IMG/VR virus record: IMGVR_UViG_3300006103_000043
Location: 1 to 34,967 of that record
Direction: 5' to 3' (one strand)
Length of the DNA: 34,967 nucleotides
Origin: a virus
Lineage: Duplodnaviria > Caudoviricetes
Below the pieces are notes generated by a model, which saw nothing but the letters and a program-made list of their open reading frames with translations, did no database searches and was not told the DNA's origin. Positions 17,654 to 30,991 of the stretch are shown here, piece after piece; the stretch's first letter is position 1, and each line of letters starts with the position of its first letter. The position numbers and the translations under genes were made by a program.

Positions 17654-17692
17654 AATCAATGACTTGTATCTTGCCCACTTGAGCAAGATAGA
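17654..17692. repeat. Copy 1 of the 25-bp palindromic element (17668-17692) with adjacent IHF-consensus site (17654-17666)
   Basis: ATCTTGCCCACTTGAGCAAGATAGA is the exact reverse complement of 26071-26095. AATCAATGACTTG fits WATCAANNNNTTR. Confidence 0.85.
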
Positions 17693-20791: not shown

Positions 20792-21573
20792 CATTTTTAG
20801 ACTTCGCACAAAGCTGCGGATTGGTTGTTGAGTATGTGATTGAGGACAGATGGGTTCGGGTTCCAACGATTGATCATCCGCACAAGCAGAATGGCTCGTA
20901 TAAATTTGTAGGGGATGCAGGATGGGTGCAGAACTTTGCCACGATGGAATCCCCTGTGTTGTGGAAGCCCAAGAACTTTGTACCGGATGATCGGTGGCTA
21001 ACCCGTCGCTTGAAAAACGAAGCTGATCAGGCCGCGAATCAGGCTCTAGCCGCTAAGAAAGCTGCATCCATCATGGCGGCGGCAGAGAGAGCGCACCATC
21101 CATACTTGAACGCGAAAGGATTCCCAGAGGCGCGGGCGTATGTTTGGAAGGATATCTTGGTGCTACCTATGCGGATCGGTAGCCAGCTAGTCGGTTGCCA
21201 GATGATACAACCGGACGGAACCAAAAGGTTTCTGAAGGGGCAGAGGACGAAGGGCGCGAGTTTGCGGATAGATGCGAAGGGGCGCGAGATATTATGCGAG
21301 GGGTTTGCGACTGCCCTTAGTATTCGGCGGGCCATGAAGCACTTGGGCGAAAGATACTCAATCACGGTGGCTTTCAGCGCAGGGAACATGGTAGAGGTGG
21401 CAAAGGGCATAGGTAGCTTGCTAGTCGTAGCGGATCATGATGTGGCAGGGATCAACGCAGCCAAAAAGATTGGCGCGAGGTACTGGATCGGGGAAGAAGG
21501 GCAGGACTTCAACGACTGCGAGCAGTCACAAGGAACTGTCGCAGCCGCTGAAAGTTTGGCTCGTTTTTTATAG
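20788..21573 (+). CDS. Toprim-domain DNA primase-like protein
   Basis: YL.AKG, LVLPM, ILCEGFATALSI, VAFSAGN, VADHD..G, DFND. ATGA overlap with the helicase. Confidence 0.85.
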   Translation: MTFLDFAQSCGLVVEYVIEDRWVRVPTIDHPHKQNGSYKFVGDAGWVQNFATMESPVLWKPKNFVPDDRWLTRRLKNEADQAANQALAAKKAASIMAAAERAHHPYLNAKGFPEARAYVWKDILVLPMRIGSQLVGCQMIQPDGTKRFLKGQRTKGASLRIDAKGREILCEGFATALSIRRAMKHLGERYSITVAFSAGNMVEVAKGIGSLLVVADHDVAGINAAKKIGARYWIGEEGQDFNDCEQSQGTVAAAESLARFL

Positions 21574-21588
21574 GTAGCTAACCAGTCG

Positions 21589-21774
21589 CTACTCATCTCT
21601 ATCTTCTGGTTCGACCAATTCCATATCGACAATTCTAAGGTCAGGATCGGTTAGCTCAAAATCCATCTCTGATATGTCTGCGCCCGCTTGTTCGTATGCA
21701 TCATCGATATCAAACGCGGTTATGTAAAACGTATCGGTATACGTCAGCGTCATTCTGCATTCATAGCGTGGCAT
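21589..21774 (-). CDS. Small acidic hypothetical protein
   Basis: 61 aa, AAGGA RBS, very D/E-rich. Confidence 0.65.
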   Translation of the reverse strand: MPRYECRMTLTYTDTFYITAFDIDDAYEQAGADISEMDFELTDPDLRIVDMELVEPEDRDE

Positions 21775-21784
21775 GGCGTCATCC

Positions 21785-21946
21785 TTATGAAATTTGAGTT
21801 ATGTTAATAACTTTGTAGGCGGGATATGCTTTCTCGGCTTGTAATTCTGCATGGTCGACATCCGTTGCTTTGCACTCAAAAGTAACAAGAAAACGATCTT
21901 CAATGAATTCTCGCAGGGTAACGATAAAAGCTGAATAGGTTTTCAT
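21785..21946 (-). CDS. Hypothetical protein, 53 aa, not in the ORF track
   Basis: MKTYSAFIVTLREFIEDRFLVTFECKATDVDHAELQAEKAYPAYKVINITQIS. GGGGAGG RBS, ATGA overlap. Confidence 0.65.
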   Translation of the reverse strand: MKTYSAFIVTLREFIEDRFLVTFECKATDVDHAELQAEKAYPAYKVINITQIS

Positions 21947-22110
21947 TCTGCTGCCTCCCCATAGTACGAGCGTATTGCTTCAATTCCCAAGTAAGAAAGT
22001 ATCGCTTCTTCTAAATTCATTTCATCCCAATCAAAAATGCCTCTGGCCTCATCCTCGTTTATGTAGTCCATTAGGTAGCTTGCCAGTCGCTGCGCGTTGA
22101 TCTCGCTCAT
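21943..22110 (-). CDS. Acidic hypothetical protein, 55 aa, not in the ORF track
   Basis: MSEINAQRLASYLMDYINEDEARGIFDWDEMNLEEAILSYLGIEAIRSYYGEAAE. GAGG RBS, ATGA overlap. Confidence 0.65.
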   Translation of the reverse strand: MSEINAQRLASYLMDYINEDEARGIFDWDEMNLEEAILSYLGIEAIRSYYGEAAE

Positions 22111-22349
22111 GCTGCCACCTCAACAATTAAATAACCGTCATGTTTAATTGTAAAAAATTCAATTCGGTGGTTTTTTGAATGGTGCCGCGAAACCTCCAAG
22201 TAAACCACTGTTTCGGTTTCCTGCCAGCCGTTTTCAATACTCTCAGCCCACGCATTTACGATTGAGTCGGTTGGGATAATGTTAGTGTACTCGTTAAGAA
22301 TGTTATAAATTTGATCCAAACCTTCGGGCGTAATAATTAAAGTTTTCAT
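22107..22349 (-). CDS. Hypothetical protein
   Basis: 80 aa, GAGGAGAC RBS. Confidence 0.65.
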   Translation of the reverse strand: MKTLIITPEGLDQIYNILNEYTNIIPTDSIVNAWAESIENGWQETETVVYLEVSRHHSKNHRIEFFTIKHDGYLIVEVAA

Positions 22350-22360
22350 TCTGTCTCCTC

Positions 22361-22693
22361 TTAGAATTGTTCAAACAAAATGGTTGTAGCAGTTTCGCCA
22401 ACAACGGAAGTTCTATCTGACAACCAATCAAAAATTAGCTGATTGTCATCCTCGTCATCAGGATCAATAAACTCGGATCGATCTAAGTCGTAATCGTCAA
22501 TAATCTCGTCACGCGTCATTTCAACGTACTCGCAGCATAGCCCGATCGGATCAAATTCTATTTCTTCCCCTAATTCATCTTCTAAATTTTCAAGATACTC
22601 AAACAAAATACCAAGCCCATCATAAGTAAAATTTGTTCTTCCCATTTTTGCGAAGGCATCTCTAAAGTCGTATACGTTGACTGTTTGTTTCAT
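22361..22693 (-). CDS. Highly acidic early protein (FRDAF...LFEYLE...EFDPIGLCCEY family), DNA-mimic candidate
   Basis: 110 aa from MKQTV with ~31 D/E versus 7 K/R by manual count. AAGGA RBS downstream of the ribozyme. Confidence 0.7.
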   Translation of the reverse strand: MKQTVNVYDFRDAFAKMGRTNFTYDGLGILFEYLENLEDELGEEIEFDPIGLCCEYVEMTRDEIIDDYDLDRSEFIDPDDEDDNQLIFDWLSDRTSVVGETATTILFEQF

Positions 22694-22726
22694 TTTATTT
22701 TCCTTGGTTGTGCGCTCTATTGCGCG

Positions 22727-22797
22727 GGTTATGACCGCATCCCTGCGGTTTCGGCTCTTAAAGCCCAAGCGGGTAGCTAACCCGTCGTCAGATAACC
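22727..22797 (-). ncRNA. Type I hammerhead ribozyme, variant with a 19-nt core insertion
   Basis: Minus strand reads GGUUAU-CUGACGA-[CGGGU UAGCU ACCCG CUUG]-GGCUU UAA GAGCC-GAAA-CCGCA GGGA UGCGG-UC-AUAACC. Confidence 0.75.
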
Positions 22798-22804
22798 TTT
22801 TTTG

Positions 22805-22936
22805 TTACATTGATAAAAAAATCACTACCCATACATAAACTGCAATCAACGCAGCAAGCCCGCCCACGATCTGAACCCAAAGTGGGGGTGGTGGTGTAAT
22901 GCCTAGCCGTTCATATCGGCTGATTGAATCTTTCAT
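22805..22936 (-). CDS. Small single-pass membrane protein, 43 aa, not in the ORF track
   Basis: MKDSISRYERLGITPPPPLWVQIVGGLAALIAVYVWVVIFLSM. AAGGAGAC RBS. Confidence 0.65.
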   Translation of the reverse strand: MKDSISRYERLGITPPPPLWVQIVGGLAALIAVYVWVVIFLSM

Positions 22937-23000
22937 AATGTCTCCTTTTATCTTCTGCATTTTCTACACATACACTCAGCGGTATGACCTAGTAAGTAAA

Positions 23001-23354
23001 TCATGCGGCCTCCTTCGCCATATCAGCTAAAAATTTATTAAGCGCGGTATCGGCCTCCGCAGTCGCGCGAAAGATCATGTCTCCCCAATAGTCGTTTAGG
23101 TTTAGAAAATCTTTTGAGTTTTCATACAAACAACCGCCTAGATAATCGGTTCCGAATTCGTGCCCGCCGATGAAAACCTGAACGCGGGCGCAAAACCACT
23201 CCCAAACTTCACGATCAATTTTGTCCACGATCTCAGCTATGTTATGACAAGTATCGTCAAACAATTCAGCGGGATGAATCTCCTCTGGTCGGATGCTAGT
23301 GACGATTTCATACTTCCCTAAGTGGTGACGATCTATTTCATTCCAGTTATCCAT
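23001..23354 (-). CDS. Conserved phage hypothetical protein (WFCARV...DYLGGCLY)
   Basis: 117 aa, acidic, AAGGGAG RBS. Confidence 0.7.
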   Translation of the reverse strand: MDNWNEIDRHHLGKYEIVTSIRPEEIHPAELFDDTCHNIAEIVDKIDREVWEWFCARVQVFIGGHEFGTDYLGGCLYENSKDFLNLNDYWGDMIFRATAEADTALNKFLADMAKEAA

Positions 23355-23372
23355 TTTTAATTCTCCCTTTAT

Positions 23373-23388
23373 GCGCCCCGAAGGGCGC
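23373..23388 (-). other. GC-rich cUUCGg hairpin between genes, without U-tract
   Basis: GCGCCC-UUCG-GGGCGC immediately upstream of an RBS. Confidence 0.6.
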
Positions 23389-23394
23389 GGTTAA

Positions 23395-23661
23395 TTATTG
23401 TTCAAATGCCATTTGTTCGATTAACAAGGGCGCGGTTTCCGCTTCCTCGATGCTATTCGATACCAAAGCGGCATTAGCTTTTGCGGTATTCGATGCATCG
23501 GTGCGAATAAGGGCGAAAACCTTCGATATTGTTGCGGATGATAGGACGATCTCTTGTTTTCCGGTTTCGCCTACCAGAGTGACAAGTCCAACAAAAACCT
23601 TGTTCTTTTCTTCATCGTTCCATTTGTTTGCTTGGCGAATTTCAAGGGATTTTACTTGCAT
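23395..23661 (-). CDS. Hypothetical protein
   Basis: 88 aa, AAGGAG RBS downstream of the ribozyme. Confidence 0.7.
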   Translation of the reverse strand: MQVKSLEIRQANKWNDEEKNKVFVGLVTLVGETGKQEIVLSSATISKVFALIRTDASNTAKANAALVSNSIEEAETAPLLIEQMAFEQ

Positions 23662-23699
23662 GAATGTTGCTCCTTTTTTGGTTGTGCCCTATGTCGGGC

Positions 23700-23751
23700 G
23701 GGTAAGACCGCTAGTGAGCGGTTTCGGCGCGTCACGCCTCGTCAGTTACCC
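23700..23751 (-). ncRNA. Type I hammerhead ribozyme (canonical core)
   Basis: Minus strand reads GGGUAA-CUGACGA-GGCG UGACG CGCC-GAAA-CCGCU CACU AGCGG-UC-UUACCC. All three stems and the full catalytic core are present. Confidence 0.92.
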
Positions 23752-23823
23752 TTTGGGTTTGTACTTCTGTAAGCTCGCAGCGTACGCATTCCAGAATTGT
23801 TGTCTTTTCTCGGCGTCAGTCAT
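23746..23823 (-). CDS. Possible 25-aa peptide ending in ribozyme stem I
   Basis: MTDAEKRQQFWNAYAASLQKYKPKG. ATG overlaps the end of the upstream gene and the TAA sits in stem I. Confidence 0.35.
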   Translation of the reverse strand: MTDAEKRQQFWNAYAASLQKYKPKG

Positions 23824-24094
23824 TTTCTGGATTCCCATAAGCGGATTCGATTTCACGTCCTGAATGAGCGCATATAAGCGGTTCACCTTCCCAATGCACG
23901 AACGCTCCCATACATTGCCAACCGTCACGCTCGGCATGCTTGGTTGACCACAATATTTTCTTGTAATTTTCCTTTGCGCTCTGCCAGTCCAGAACCTCGC
24001 CGTCACTCATACACAGGGCAAGCGGGTAACCTCCTAAAATGGTGTACCCTTCATTGCGGATAAAATACTTAAGTGTGTTTATTGCTTTACTCAT
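23816..24094 (-). CDS. Conserved phage hypothetical protein (GGYPL...DG..L...IESAYG)
   Basis: 92 aa, GGAGG RBS. Confidence 0.7.
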   Translation of the reverse strand: MSKAINTLKYFIRNEGYTILGGYPLALCMSDGEVLDWQSAKENYKKILWSTKHAERDGWQCMGAFVHWEGEPLICAHSGREIESAYGNPEND

Positions 24095-24313
24095 TTAAAC
24101 TTCCTCCAAAAAAGCGCATACACAAGCGTGAACGGCGTTATATCGCACACAATCACCTGAATCCCATTCCTTGCGGAAACTGTAACCAGTTTGGCGTGAG
24201 ACTTTATTGATTGCTCCGCGATAAGTATTGGCAAAGACGGTGAACCGTTTCGCCCAAGAGTAATTCGCTTCACCCCCGAAGGTGTCGGTTATCTCAATTT
24301 GGTAAGTATTCAT
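24095..24313 (-). CDS. Conserved phage hypothetical protein (EITDTFGGEANYSW)
   Basis: 72 aa, abuts both neighbours. Confidence 0.7.
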   Translation of the reverse strand: MNTYQIEITDTFGGEANYSWAKRFTVFANTYRGAINKVSRQTGYSFRKEWDSGDCVRYNAVHACVCAFLEEV

Positions 24314-24508
24314 TTATTCCCCCAATTCAGTTATAAGTGTAACGGTCGCGCCAAAGCGCTTAAGCTCTTGCAGAACAGAATCTTGAGGATCACGCGCTGC
24401 AAAGCGGTATCCGTCTGGCATAGTGACAAGGTGAACGCCCCCATATTCACAAAGGTTGAATCTTTCGCAAATTAAAGAATCCTTTGGGTTCATAGCTAAG
24501 ATACTCAT
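24314..24508 (-). CDS. Hypothetical protein
   Basis: 64 aa, AGGAG RBS, ATGA overlap. Confidence 0.6.
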   Translation of the reverse strand: MSILAMNPKDSLICERFNLCEYGGVHLVTMPDGYRFAARDPQDSVLQELKRFGATVTLITELGE

Positions 24509-24684
24509 AGCGATTTAATCTCCTGCTGGACTTCGATCTGGTAACCAAGCCGCTTGATTGTGGCAATGGCCGCGCGGGTAAGTGTCTTTGTTCCGGCTAG
24601 GTCGGCTAGAAGTTTGGCTTGTTCGCATATAGGACGGATGACTTCGTTCCCATACTGATTTGCTATAGATACAGTTATGATCAT
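24505..24684 (-). CDS. Conserved phage hypothetical protein (YG...P.C..AK..A.LAGTKTLT)
   Basis: 59 aa from MIITV. ATGA overlap with the upstream gene. Confidence 0.7.
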   Translation of the reverse strand: MIITVSIANQYGNEVIRPICEQAKLLADLAGTKTLTRAAIATIKRLGYQIEVQQEIKSL

Positions 24685-24878
24685 GCTTTCCCCCCATCCA
24701 GAATCACTTGATACATATTCCAACCAAGCGTGACTACTGAATCGCCTGTGGTAAGTAAGTGCTCAATCATAGAACGATCAACCGAGTGCCAACCTACCCA
24801 GTCAGCGCGTTCGCGCATTACTTCGTGCCAACCCCTTAGTTCGGTTTTGGCGTGGTATGCAATCATTGGTGTATTCAT
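24681..24878 (-). CDS. Hypothetical protein
   Basis: 65 aa from MNTPM, AGGAGAC RBS. Confidence 0.6.
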   Translation of the reverse strand: MNTPMIAYHAKTELRGWHEVMRERADWVGWHSVDRSMIEHLLTTGDSVVTLGWNMYQVILDGGKA

Positions 24879-24889
24879 TGTCTTGTCTC

Positions 24890-25090
24890 CTATAAACGTA
24901 CTATTGGGCAACCCTGCACTTCCATTTTTGTTACATAGTACTTAACGCATAACAGGAGTGCTTCCCAAGTGAGTGCGCTAATAGAGGCGGTTTCACATAC
25001 GATCTCTCCATCGTCATAAACTATCGCTACATGATGACCGTGCACTAAAAACTTACCTACGGGCCACGGCTTACGAGCTGGTGATGTCAT
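24890..25090 (-). CDS. Hypothetical protein, first gene of the early operon
   Basis: 66 aa, AAGGGAG RBS, promoter upstream. Confidence 0.6.
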   Translation of the reverse strand: MTSPARKPWPVGKFLVHGHHVAIVYDDGEIVCETASISALTWEALLLCVKYYVTKMEVQGCPIVRL

Positions 25091-25146
25091 TTTGTATTCT
25101 CCCTTTAGTTAAACATGAAAGTGCATGTGCGCTTTCCATGTGTTGC

Positions 25147-25174
25147 ATCCTATCACAATTAATCCATGTGTCAA
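25147..25174 (-). promoter_or_regulatory. Sigma70-type promoter of the early operon
   Basis: TTGACA-16 nt-TAGGAT with extended TG, flanked by CACATG motifs. Confidence 0.6.
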
Positions 25175-25289
25175 TAGGTCAACGCAAAATATTTTATTAC
25201 CTTACAAACAATGTCAGGATTGGTAAGGTTGCGAGATATAGAGCGAAGGATTAACATGCGCTAAATCCACAATTTATACCTGAGCATAT

Positions 25290-26021
25290 ATGAGCCATAA
25301 AATGACGAGAGCGCAGGCGCGGGAAGCACTTCAGCAAGTGCCTATTGATTATGTGATTACTGGTGACAATAGGCAGAGACTCACACCGAAACAAAGGGAA
25401 TTTGCTCGCCAGATGGTGACAGCACCAACCAAGTCCGCAGCATACCGGAACGCATATAACACGAACGGAAAGCCTAAGAACGTTCATTCTGATGCAGCTA
25501 AGCTCTTGCGTGATCCCAGAATCGTCACAGAGATCGAGGCGTTGAGGTTGGCGAGTGAGGCAGAAAAACATCGAACCCCTGCTCAATTACGGGCTCTGGT
25601 AACGGGGCAGCTAGTCCAACACGCTCTAGATGATAGCGTTCCCCCTGCCACACGGATCCGCGCTCTGGAGTTATTAGGCAAGCTAACGGAAGTTGCTTCA
25701 TTCACTGAGCGCAGGGAAACAGTCGTTCATCATGCTAGTGCCGATATCAGGGCTAGACTGATTGAGCAGCTCCGCTCGGTCAACGTAGTGGATCAGGATG
25801 ACGGTTCAGACCTACTAGCCGAGCTTTCCGCAGACCGCGCCATTTTAGCGGAATCGCCTGCGCCGGACGCCCACCCATCCCCACCCCCCCAAATCGGGCC
25901 GGATTCTGCCGATGCAGCTAGGCATACTATTCCCAACACTCAATCACCCAATTTTGAGATAGCACCCGAAGAAATGGAAATCCTGCGCCCAGAAGACCCC
26001 CCCATGTCTGATGAGGAATGA
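25290..26021 (+). CDS. Terminase small subunit-like protein
   Basis: LTPKQREFA...AAYRNAY...AAKLLRDPRI HTH and RIRALELLGK. Upstream of terL. Confidence 0.7.
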   Translation: MSHKMTRAQAREALQQVPIDYVITGDNRQRLTPKQREFARQMVTAPTKSAAYRNAYNTNGKPKNVHSDAAKLLRDPRIVTEIEALRLASEAEKHRTPAQLRALVTGQLVQHALDDSVPPATRIRALELLGKLTEVASFTERRETVVHHASADIRARLIEQLRSVNVVDQDDGSDLLAELSADRAILAESPAPDAHPSPPPQIGPDSADAARHTIPNTQSPNFEIAPEEMEILRPEDPPMSDEE

Positions 26022-26049: not shown

Positions 26050-26113
26050 TGAGCAATTCATATATATGAATCTATCTTGCTCAAGTGGGCAAGATGCAAT
26101 AAGTGTTTGATAT
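26050..26113. repeat. Copy 2 (inverted) of the 25-bp palindromic element (26071-26095) with IHF-consensus site and TGAGCAATT box
   Basis: TCTATCTTGCTCAAGTGGGCAAGAT. The reverse complement of 26100-26112 is TATCAAACACTTA (WATCAANNNNTTR). Confidence 0.85.
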
Positions 26114-30397: not shown

Positions 30398-30588
30398 TAG
30401 AAAAAGCACTGGCTTACCTAGTAAGTGAGCTCACGAAGCAGATTGAAAGCATTCAAGAGAACCTTGCAGATGATAATTGCAGGGATTTTCCTGAGTACAA
30501 GAAGGCATGCGGCGAGGTTAAGGGTCTACTTTCCGCAAGAATGCTCATATTAGACCTGCAAAAACGAGTGAACGAAGAAGATGAGTGA
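30394..30588 (+). CDS. Small head-module hypothetical protein
   Basis: 64 aa (DFPEYKKACGEVKGL) between portal and GroES-like gene. Confidence 0.7.
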   Translation: MIEKALAYLVSELTKQIESIQENLADDNCRDFPEYKKACGEVKGLLSARMLILDLQKRVNEEDE

Positions 30589-30991
30589 AATTTTAATTGG
30601 GATTAACCCAAACAATCCAGTAGTAGTAGAAACGGCTAGTGCTCCGGCAGAAGAAAAGGCAAAACAACTTCCAAAACCAAGTGGATATTACATTTTATGT
30701 GCGATCCCGGAGATGGAAGACATGTTTGACAATGGTTTGGCTAAAGCTGAAGAGACTATTAAGAACGAAGAGATCTTAACGACTGTTTTGTTCGTAGTTT
30801 CTTTGGGACCAGACTGTTATACAAACAAAGAGAAATTCCCATCCGGCCCTTGGTGCAAGGAAGGCGACTTTGTTTTAGTCCGACCCCACGCAGGATCAAG
30901 GCTTGTCATTCATGGCAGGGAATTTCGCATGATATACGACGATTCAGTCGAAGGAACCGTAGAAGATCCACGCGGTATCTCACGTAAATAG
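30581..30991 (+). CDS. GroES-like co-chaperonin
   Basis: PKPSGYYIL...VVSLGPDCY...PWCKEGDFVL...GSRL.I.G.EFRMI.DDSV.G.V. Confidence 0.8.
   Translation: MSEILIGINPNNPVVVETASAPAEEKAKQLPKPSGYYILCAIPEMEDMFDNGLAKAEETIKNEEILTTVLFVVSLGPDCYTNKEKFPSGPWCKEGDFVLVRPHAGSRLVIHGREFRMIYDDSVEGTVEDPRGISRK

Follow-up and report, generated by a model that had tools for sequence, protein, structure and literature searches.

Two hammerhead motifs with a shared leader module between small genes of a tailed phage, one bearing an insert beside its core

The window, by which we mean the whole stretch of 34,967 nt analysed here, is the entire assembly, a single contig, and the public runs holding it are freshwater metagenomes (24 runs, no RNA runs among them). 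Annotation of its ORFs yields tailed-phage genes (terminase subunits, portal, major head protein and DNA ejection protein) and genes for replication and recombination (helicase, primase, a ParB-like protein, exonuclease and Erf). A GroES-like co-chaperonin (phrog_3188) is encoded on the plus strand between the portal and head genes, at 30581-30991. Nucleotide comparison with cultured phages gave no useful match. The relatives of the terminase include phages of cyanobacteria and proteobacteria, and its nearest cultured matches, from phages of Pelagibacter and of a gammaproteobacterium, are 53-59% identical; because cultured terminases reach at most 59% identity, we assign no host.

The features of main interest lie on the minus strand, in a block (25090-21589) of some 16 small ORFs, almost all lacking an assigned function, flanked by the primase gene (plus strand, end at 21573) and the small terminase gene (start at 25290). 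None of the 13 ORFs scanned in this cluster contains a Pfam family, and the 110-aa ORF at 22693-22361 belongs to phrog_9974, which is labelled as of unknown function. The gene layout suggests that the block is 'early'. At its head stands a sigma-70-like promoter candidate (25174-25147, minus strand) with 10 of 12 matches and a TG extension; it is the best of seven matches, a number that represents no excess, since shuffled sequences give a mean of 8.8.

Two type I hammerhead motifs, HH1 and HH2, occur on the minus strand of this block. HH1 (23751-23700) is canonical and is recognised by sequence, descriptor, covariance model and fold. Read 5' to 3', it comprises a 6-bp stem I, a CUGACGA core starting at 23745, a stem II of 4-5 bp joined to A9 without a gap, GAAA, a 6-bp stem III that includes A15.1-U16.1, and a GUC whose C17 is position 23706. 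All the type I core bases are in place (C3-U4-G5-A6-N7-G8-A9, G12-A13-A14, A15.1-U16.1 and H17), three paired stems adjoin the core, and the end of stem I is open. The minimum-energy fold of the isolated motif is the hammerhead itself. Upstream lies an ORF of 25 aa (23823-23746, minus strand), identified from its translation and sequence, whose TAA stop coincides with the final three nucleotides of the stem I 5' strand. A preliminary description of this DNA had proposed the place of HH1, its core, its GUC and a predicted cut at 23706/23705, all of which we can read in the sequence. HH1 is very probably active in cutting.

HH2 (22797-22727, minus strand; found by sequence, descriptor and model) has a 6-bp stem I, a core from 22791, GAAA and a 6-bp stem III, and its bases agree with the type I core. 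C17 of its GUC is position 22733, so that the predicted cut, if the motif is active, falls 3' of C22733; here too the place, core, GUC and cut (22733/22732) given by the preliminary description agree with the letters. That description had further stated that the stems of the two motifs differ while keeping their pairing. The core and stems I-III are indeed present, but HH2 carries an insert that went unmentioned: 19 nt between A9 and stem II (22784-22766, minus strand), made of a 5-bp hairpin (22784-22770) and a 4-nt linker. With these 19 nt intervening, the closing pair 10.1-11.1 of stem II does not directly follow A9, and A9 is followed by a C, a base unable to pair with C11.1. Perreault et al. 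(2011) discarded matches with a mispair at 10.1-11.1 unless their activity had been measured (PMC3088659).

The distance from A9 to G12 is 32 nt in HH2 and 12-21 nt in the other 127 of the 128 hammerheads that we collected with a pattern allowing up to 40 nt, for one stem III type and over 21 of the 64 parts of IMG/VR. One extra base at A9/G10.1 is present in 19 of the 128. In the minimum-energy fold of HH2 the linker of the insert pairs with core bases C7-G8-A9 (-27.3 kcal/mol, against -24.8 for the hammerhead as drawn, which omits one possible extra stem II pair), unlike HH1 and the copies of three relatives, for which the minimum-energy fold is the hammerhead. On these predictions the insert is likely to slow or disable HH2, and we see roughly even odds that its cleavage is biologically useful. 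Because the insert adjoins the core, with whose bases it is predicted to pair, the initial claim that both motifs cut is not supported as stated.

A search of IMG/VR for insert-type hammerheads returned a single match, the window's own twin, and 23 of the 25 matches in GTDB had no stem I. L435, one of the GTDB candidates, was rejected because it is an ordinary hammerhead preceded by a second core word. An ambiguous case lies in a contig of a Syntrophaceae genome (L452, about 290-400): it may be a hammerhead, with a stem I of 5 bp and 51 nt in the stem II region.

A descriptor of type I hammerheads run on both strands of the window returned HH1 and HH2 and no other match; 300 dinucleotide shuffles gave a mean of 0.007 loose matches each, and none of the 300 gave one equally strong. 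Rfam, proposed earlier as the means of confirming the motifs, did not do so: it has no match at gathering score over the window, its hammerhead models missing both HH1 and HH2, and at E<=10 over 21000-26000 it gives five weak matches, none of them a hammerhead. As Rfam detects neither motif, we built a covariance model, R1, on 86 members of the set of 128 distinct hammerheads; all come from other contigs, and both near-duplicates and the window lineage were excluded. R1 scores HH1 at 61.2 bits (E 4e-14) and HH2 at 45.8 bits (E 5.9e-10), and finds no further hammerhead in the window (next match 10 bits, E 3). The 86-member alignment is 96.5% paired and has 398 two-sided changes against 112 when shuffled, counts that are partly circular because the descriptor choosing the members demands pairing, and on which we do not rely.

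In both motifs the hammerhead is followed by the same succession of elements. After HH1 comes a hairpin of 4 bp with a 6-nt loop (23699-23686, minus strand), which would lie 6 nt from the 5' end created by the cut, then an A/C-rich spacer, a Shine-Dalgarno sequence (23675-23670) and an ATG (the three spanning 23685-23661) starting an 88-aa ORF (23661-23395). After HH2, another hairpin of 4 bp and 6-nt loop (22725-22712, minus strand) precedes a spacer, a Shine-Dalgarno sequence (22705-22701) and the ATG (together 22711-22693) of the 110-aa ORF; this hairpin is identical in L318, L335 and L377, three relatives described below. The third pair of the hairpin is C-G after HH1 and G-C after HH2, and the two cassettes have 59 of 77 aligned bases in common. 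The module proposed at the outset, that is, a 4-bp hairpin with a 6-nt loop, ACAACCAA, AAGGA and ATG (23661 and 22693), is thus present after each hammerhead, with AAGGA overlapping the last two A of ACAACCAA in the HH2 copy. The suggestion that the hairpin-ACAACCAA module is reused holds within the window lineage but not in general: only 8 of the 128 hammerheads carry a hairpin directly 3' of stem I, six of them from the window lineage, and we therefore consider the module lineage-specific.

The 4-bp hairpins may resemble the boxB antitermination hairpins of lambdoid phages, a likeness that we set aside, the boxA-like letters upstream being those of the hammerhead core and varying among relatives. 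A third intergenic hairpin, with a UUCG loop (23389-23372, minus strand), precedes the RBS of ORF 23354, with no hammerhead core upstream; its place is occupied by HH1 in L318. In L335 and L377 this hairpin stays behind ORF 23661 and the gene following it differs. It also scores as a terminator-like site on the plus strand.

Close relatives of the cassettes were sought with a hammerhead-plus-hairpin pattern, which gave 129 loci (in a metagenome scan of 50 of 64 parts), ten of them with a valid hammerhead: five identical to the window and five variants (L318, L335, L377, L415 and L416). In IMG/VR, the module pattern gave 25 stretches, of which 22 are chance matches and three are loci, from two contigs, identical to the window; none of the 25 holds the exact cassette beyond the window lineage. 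The five variants are short metagenome contigs (655-1951 nt) from mixed populations, and chimeras are possible. Stem III of L416 is different and fully re-paired; L318, L377 and L415 have altered loop III bases and GUA in place of GUC at the cut; and L318 has a G-C to G-U change in stem I and combines the hairpin stem of HH1 with the loop of HH2. All these changes in stems and loops leave the hammerhead core untouched, and the stem III and GUA variants recur in contigs from the public runs.

Three of the relatives (L318, L335 and L377, in the last at 1427-1476) have an HH2 free of the insert, with stem II directly after A9, a stem III of its own, the identical downstream hairpin and a different gene behind it. 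L318 and L377 each contain two canonical hammerheads. An insert-type HH2 also stands at the end of L377, which includes only its 5' half; it differs by a single change in the loop and has a different upstream context, one that recurs in public run X22. Ahead of HH2 in the window lies an ORF of 43 aa with a hydrophobic stretch at its C terminus (22936-22805, minus strand); in L318, L335 and L377 the insert-free HH2 follows a counterpart with 40% identity.

The genes beside the cassettes vary. Around HH1, the window and four relatives show three different upstream genes and two different downstream genes, and two different genes follow HH2; comparison of the five relatives thus bears out the expectation that the cassette would be met beside different genes. 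The four HH1 relatives all cease to resemble the window at 23752-23754, where stem I has its outer edge. Contigs from the public runs break at 23752, 23754, 22798, 22701 and 23373-23374, and one of them joins 23686 to 23366, placing HH1 immediately before ORF 23354. These edge breakpoints and the chimeric cassette of L318, seen on short metagenome contigs, may reflect gain or loss of genes through recombination between cassettes, and the cassettes likely serve, as a side effect, as homology for swapping small accessory genes. L377 (1-960) has two tandem copies of an ORF 23661 homolog with its hairpin, enclosing another gene and HH1; this may reflect a real duplication, a mini-circle-type rearrangement or an assembly artefact.

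The insert of HH2 overlaps one copy of an 18-nt repeat (22787-22770, minus strand), which also covers part of the core. The genome has six co-oriented minus-strand copies, with first bases at 22787, 22089, 21588, 21427, 21193 and 21008, and the consensus, fitted after the copies were seen, has six matches against 0.007 per shuffle. Three copies are antisense in the primase gene and the others lie at the convergence of primase and small-gene block, in ORF 22110 and in HH2. The copy at 22089 encodes part of a conserved peptide, but coding does not explain the repeat, because the copies in the primase gene fall in different frames. L335 has three copies at one mismatch and L377 two. Ten primase relatives show no cluster of copies, and we saw no comparable repeat family in five loci. 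Two similar words of 4-5 bases, 11 nt apart, suggest a DNA-binding site. The repeat could be an operator, an origin or a site of recombination, and it seems to mark the breaks of gene fusions in L335. Elsewhere in the window, a near-palindromic element of 23-29 nt occurs twice, 8.4 kb apart: at 17664-17692, where the left and the replication block diverge, and at 26073-26095, near the terminase genes; it resembles an operator.

The predicted pairing of stem I with about 40 nt of flank is 0.47 for HH1 and 0.01 for HH2, and among relatives it is 0.01 for the insert-free HH2 of L377, 0.00 for HH1 of L318 and 0.91 for L416; low values such as these indicate that equilibrium folds often compete with the hammerhead. 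Unmasking of the RBS by cleavage gets no support from the folds: the predicted accessibility of the Shine-Dalgarno sequence is unchanged for HH1 and lower for HH2 after the cut. By eye we saw no base-paired tertiary partner for loop II in either motif, and the downstream loop of L318 is changed while its loop II is the same.

In the wider family, a pattern of core and stem III gave 116 distinct matches, and 110 of these have a stem I of at least 4 bp, which the pattern does not demand. A Shine-Dalgarno sequence, start codon and ORF follow within 60 nt in 86 of 104 hammerheads against 318 of 1589 random positions, and a stop codon lies within 25 nt upstream in 51 of 78 against 152 of 1295. The ribozyme is not tied to a particular gene, since none of 61 other homologs of ORF 22693 has a hammerhead directly upstream. 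Loci of other primase or terminase relatives contain hammerheads in 8 of 90 cases, many loci being too short to include the block; all eight have them upstream of the terminase on the opposite strand, as in the window, and one has three.

Clustered phage hammerheads with this layout have been known since 2011, when Perreault et al. described them flanking genes in prophages and phages, with type I examples in Pseudomonas phages LUZ24 and PaP3, and proposed processing into operon- or single-gene mRNAs; three prophage arrays cut at all sites in vitro, one of them also in E. coli (PMC3088659). The self-processing of phage mRNA put forward in the preliminary description fits the intergenic position of the motifs in a co-oriented block, but as an idea it is not new (PMC3088659). 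As in those arrays, at least two hammerheads flank short gene blocks in a phage genome, here 973 nt apart, and the flanked genes vary. Compared with the arrays as presented in the accessible text of that study, the window differs in that its motifs escape Rfam models, its 3' hairpin is lineage-specific and signs of strain-level gene swapping are visible at the cassette edge; nor is a 19-nt insert after A9 among the core variants given in that text (PMC3088659). The closest parallel to the insert is the plus hammerhead of CChMVd, where an extra base occupies the same A9/G10.1 position, although it is 1 nt there against 19 with a hairpin here (PMC3705267).

Other systems share parts of the design. 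RiboJ has the same order of hammerhead, hairpin and RBS, and its cleavage likewise provides a uniform 5' end; in E. coli it increased mRNA about twofold and protein by a factor of two to ten (PMC6206723). RiboJ, however, was engineered from the sTRSV ribozyme, has a 23-nt hairpin and stands after a promoter (PMC6206723), whereas the window cassette is natural and intercistronic with a 14-nt hairpin, so that the likeness is one of working only. Like glmS, the cassettes would self-cleave upstream of a bacterial start codon and leave a 5'-OH, but glmS has another fold, needs a metabolite and is followed by RNase J1 decay (PMC3328962, PMC6765202). The PeSLs of T4-type phages are also repeated intergenic cassettes of about 100 bp beside small non-essential genes that are gained and lost; they consist of a promoter and terminator stem-loops, with mini-circles shown (Arbiol et al. 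2010, PMC2839356), while the window cassettes are a ribozyme and a leader, and neither contains a promoter-like or terminator-like site. According to a 2019 review, the purpose of phage hammerheads remains undefined (PMC6765202), and a 2026 paper attributes to type I hammerheads a help to translation in eukaryotic RNA viruses (PMC13725137).

We consider it reasonably probable that the hammerheads, placed between an upstream stop and the next RBS, free the downstream gene blocks, with HH1 cutting the small-gene transcript and HH2 slowed or disabled. T7 uses RNase III for comparable transcript processing. The block would be transcribed as one message from the candidate promoter at 25174. HH1 would cut at 23706/23705, leaving a cyclic phosphate on the upstream RNA and a 5'-OH on the downstream RNA, whose first base would lie 6 nt ahead of the 4-bp hairpin and 44 nt ahead of the ATG. 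In HH2 the cut would fall at 22733/22732, at a rate predicted to be lowered or abolished by the insert; were both to cut, a middle fragment of 973 nt (23705-22733, minus strand) with ORFs 23661, 23354 and 22936 would be released. As the HH1 cut would leave a defined 5' end, the downstream block would have a fixed leader whatever precedes it, and by analogy with RiboJ the likeliest purpose is to make every downstream gene block independent of its upstream surroundings. This may in turn affect mRNA stability or translation. The initial claim that the products are stabilised is not supported as worded, since the outcome would depend on the host: 5'-OH RNA is a poorer substrate for RNase E but is a substrate for RNase J1. 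In Synechocystis, RNase E strongly prefers 5'-P RNA to 5'-OH RNA (PMC10939160), and in B. subtilis the 5'-OH product of glmS is broken down by RNase J1 (PMC3328962).

Could both motifs instead cut efficiently, the insert of HH2 bulging out harmlessly and the 973-nt middle block becoming a separate stabilised mRNA? The core bases and the three stems of HH2 are intact, the insert form stands in two upstream contexts with its change confined to a loop, and an extra base is accepted at A9/G10.1 in the 19 family members noted above and in the CChMVd plus hammerhead (PMC3705267). Yet a C at that position, with which the HH2 insert starts, is strongly detrimental in CChMVd (PMC3705267). Since the 127 other hammerheads also keep to the shorter distance, the core-pairing fold is favoured in energy and stabilisation would vary with the host, we find this reading unlikely. 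Cleavage might rather lower or time expression, uncoupling downstream genes and marking the RNA for decay by its 5'-OH, as with glmS in Bacillus. RNase J occurs in cyanobacteria, and with phages of cyanobacteria among the terminase relatives an RNase J host is possible. The breakdown of the glmS product by RNase J1 (PMC3328962) provides the model, but a hairpin near the new 5' end with a Shine-Dalgarno sequence close behind would, if RiboJ is a guide (PMC6206723), suit protection better. With the best terminase matches, at 53-59% in phages of Pelagibacter and a gammaproteobacterium, weak for the host either way, a decay signal strikes us as distinctly improbable.

Hammerhead cleavage leaves 5'-OH and 2',3'-cyclic phosphate ends, which RtcB-type ligation joins, so the chemistry would permit a fragment released by paired cuts to be ligated into circular or spliced RNA. 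This would require an active HH2, and 40 scanned ORFs include no such ligase, one 92-aa ORF having a weak 'DNA ligase' label; Perreault et al. sought such products in phage arrays and, according to the accessible text, found none (PMC3088659). We regard this outcome as extremely improbable. That the cassettes spread chiefly as selfish or neutral recombination linkers, their cleavage mattering little to the phage, would agree with their patchy presence among relatives, with the breakpoints at their edges and with a possibly dead HH2 persisting in two contexts. Homology alone, however, would not fix the core while stems change on both sides, nor the spacing to the Shine-Dalgarno sequence and start, and such a view is very hard to favour. 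A bolder combination would make HH2 a natural switchable hammerhead with the repeat in its core, off when the linker pairs with C7-G8-A9 and on when bound by a phage factor recognising the six-copy repeat, and the cassettes ribozyme-based shuffling modules, an RNA-processing counterpart of PeSLs that would supply incoming accessory genes with a leader already in place; we offer it as a speculation with a small chance of being right.

What is fresh here is the insert-bearing HH2 with its natural insert-free control, and the strain-level signs of gene-swapping joints at the cassettes. HH2 with and without the insert, before the same hairpin and Shine-Dalgarno sequence, offers a naturally matched pair with which the purpose could be tested directly. 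A shuffling role, if true, would link RNA processing to phage genome mosaicism, a connection for which we found no publication in the accessible part of the open-licence literature. For one narrow stem III pattern we estimate about 380 stretches in IMG/VR, and since Rfam misses the window motifs, a model such as R1 would improve phage annotation. Two contigs of unrelated or distantly related phages (L301, 4550-6321, and L192, 1209-1823) have three type I hammerheads each, all before a Shine-Dalgarno sequence and start. By eye, the phage type I hammerheads of loci L001-L123 seem to be of two subtypes, one with a 6-bp stem I and a 13-nt stem-loop II, the other with a 5-bp stem I and a stem-loop II of 18-21 nt.
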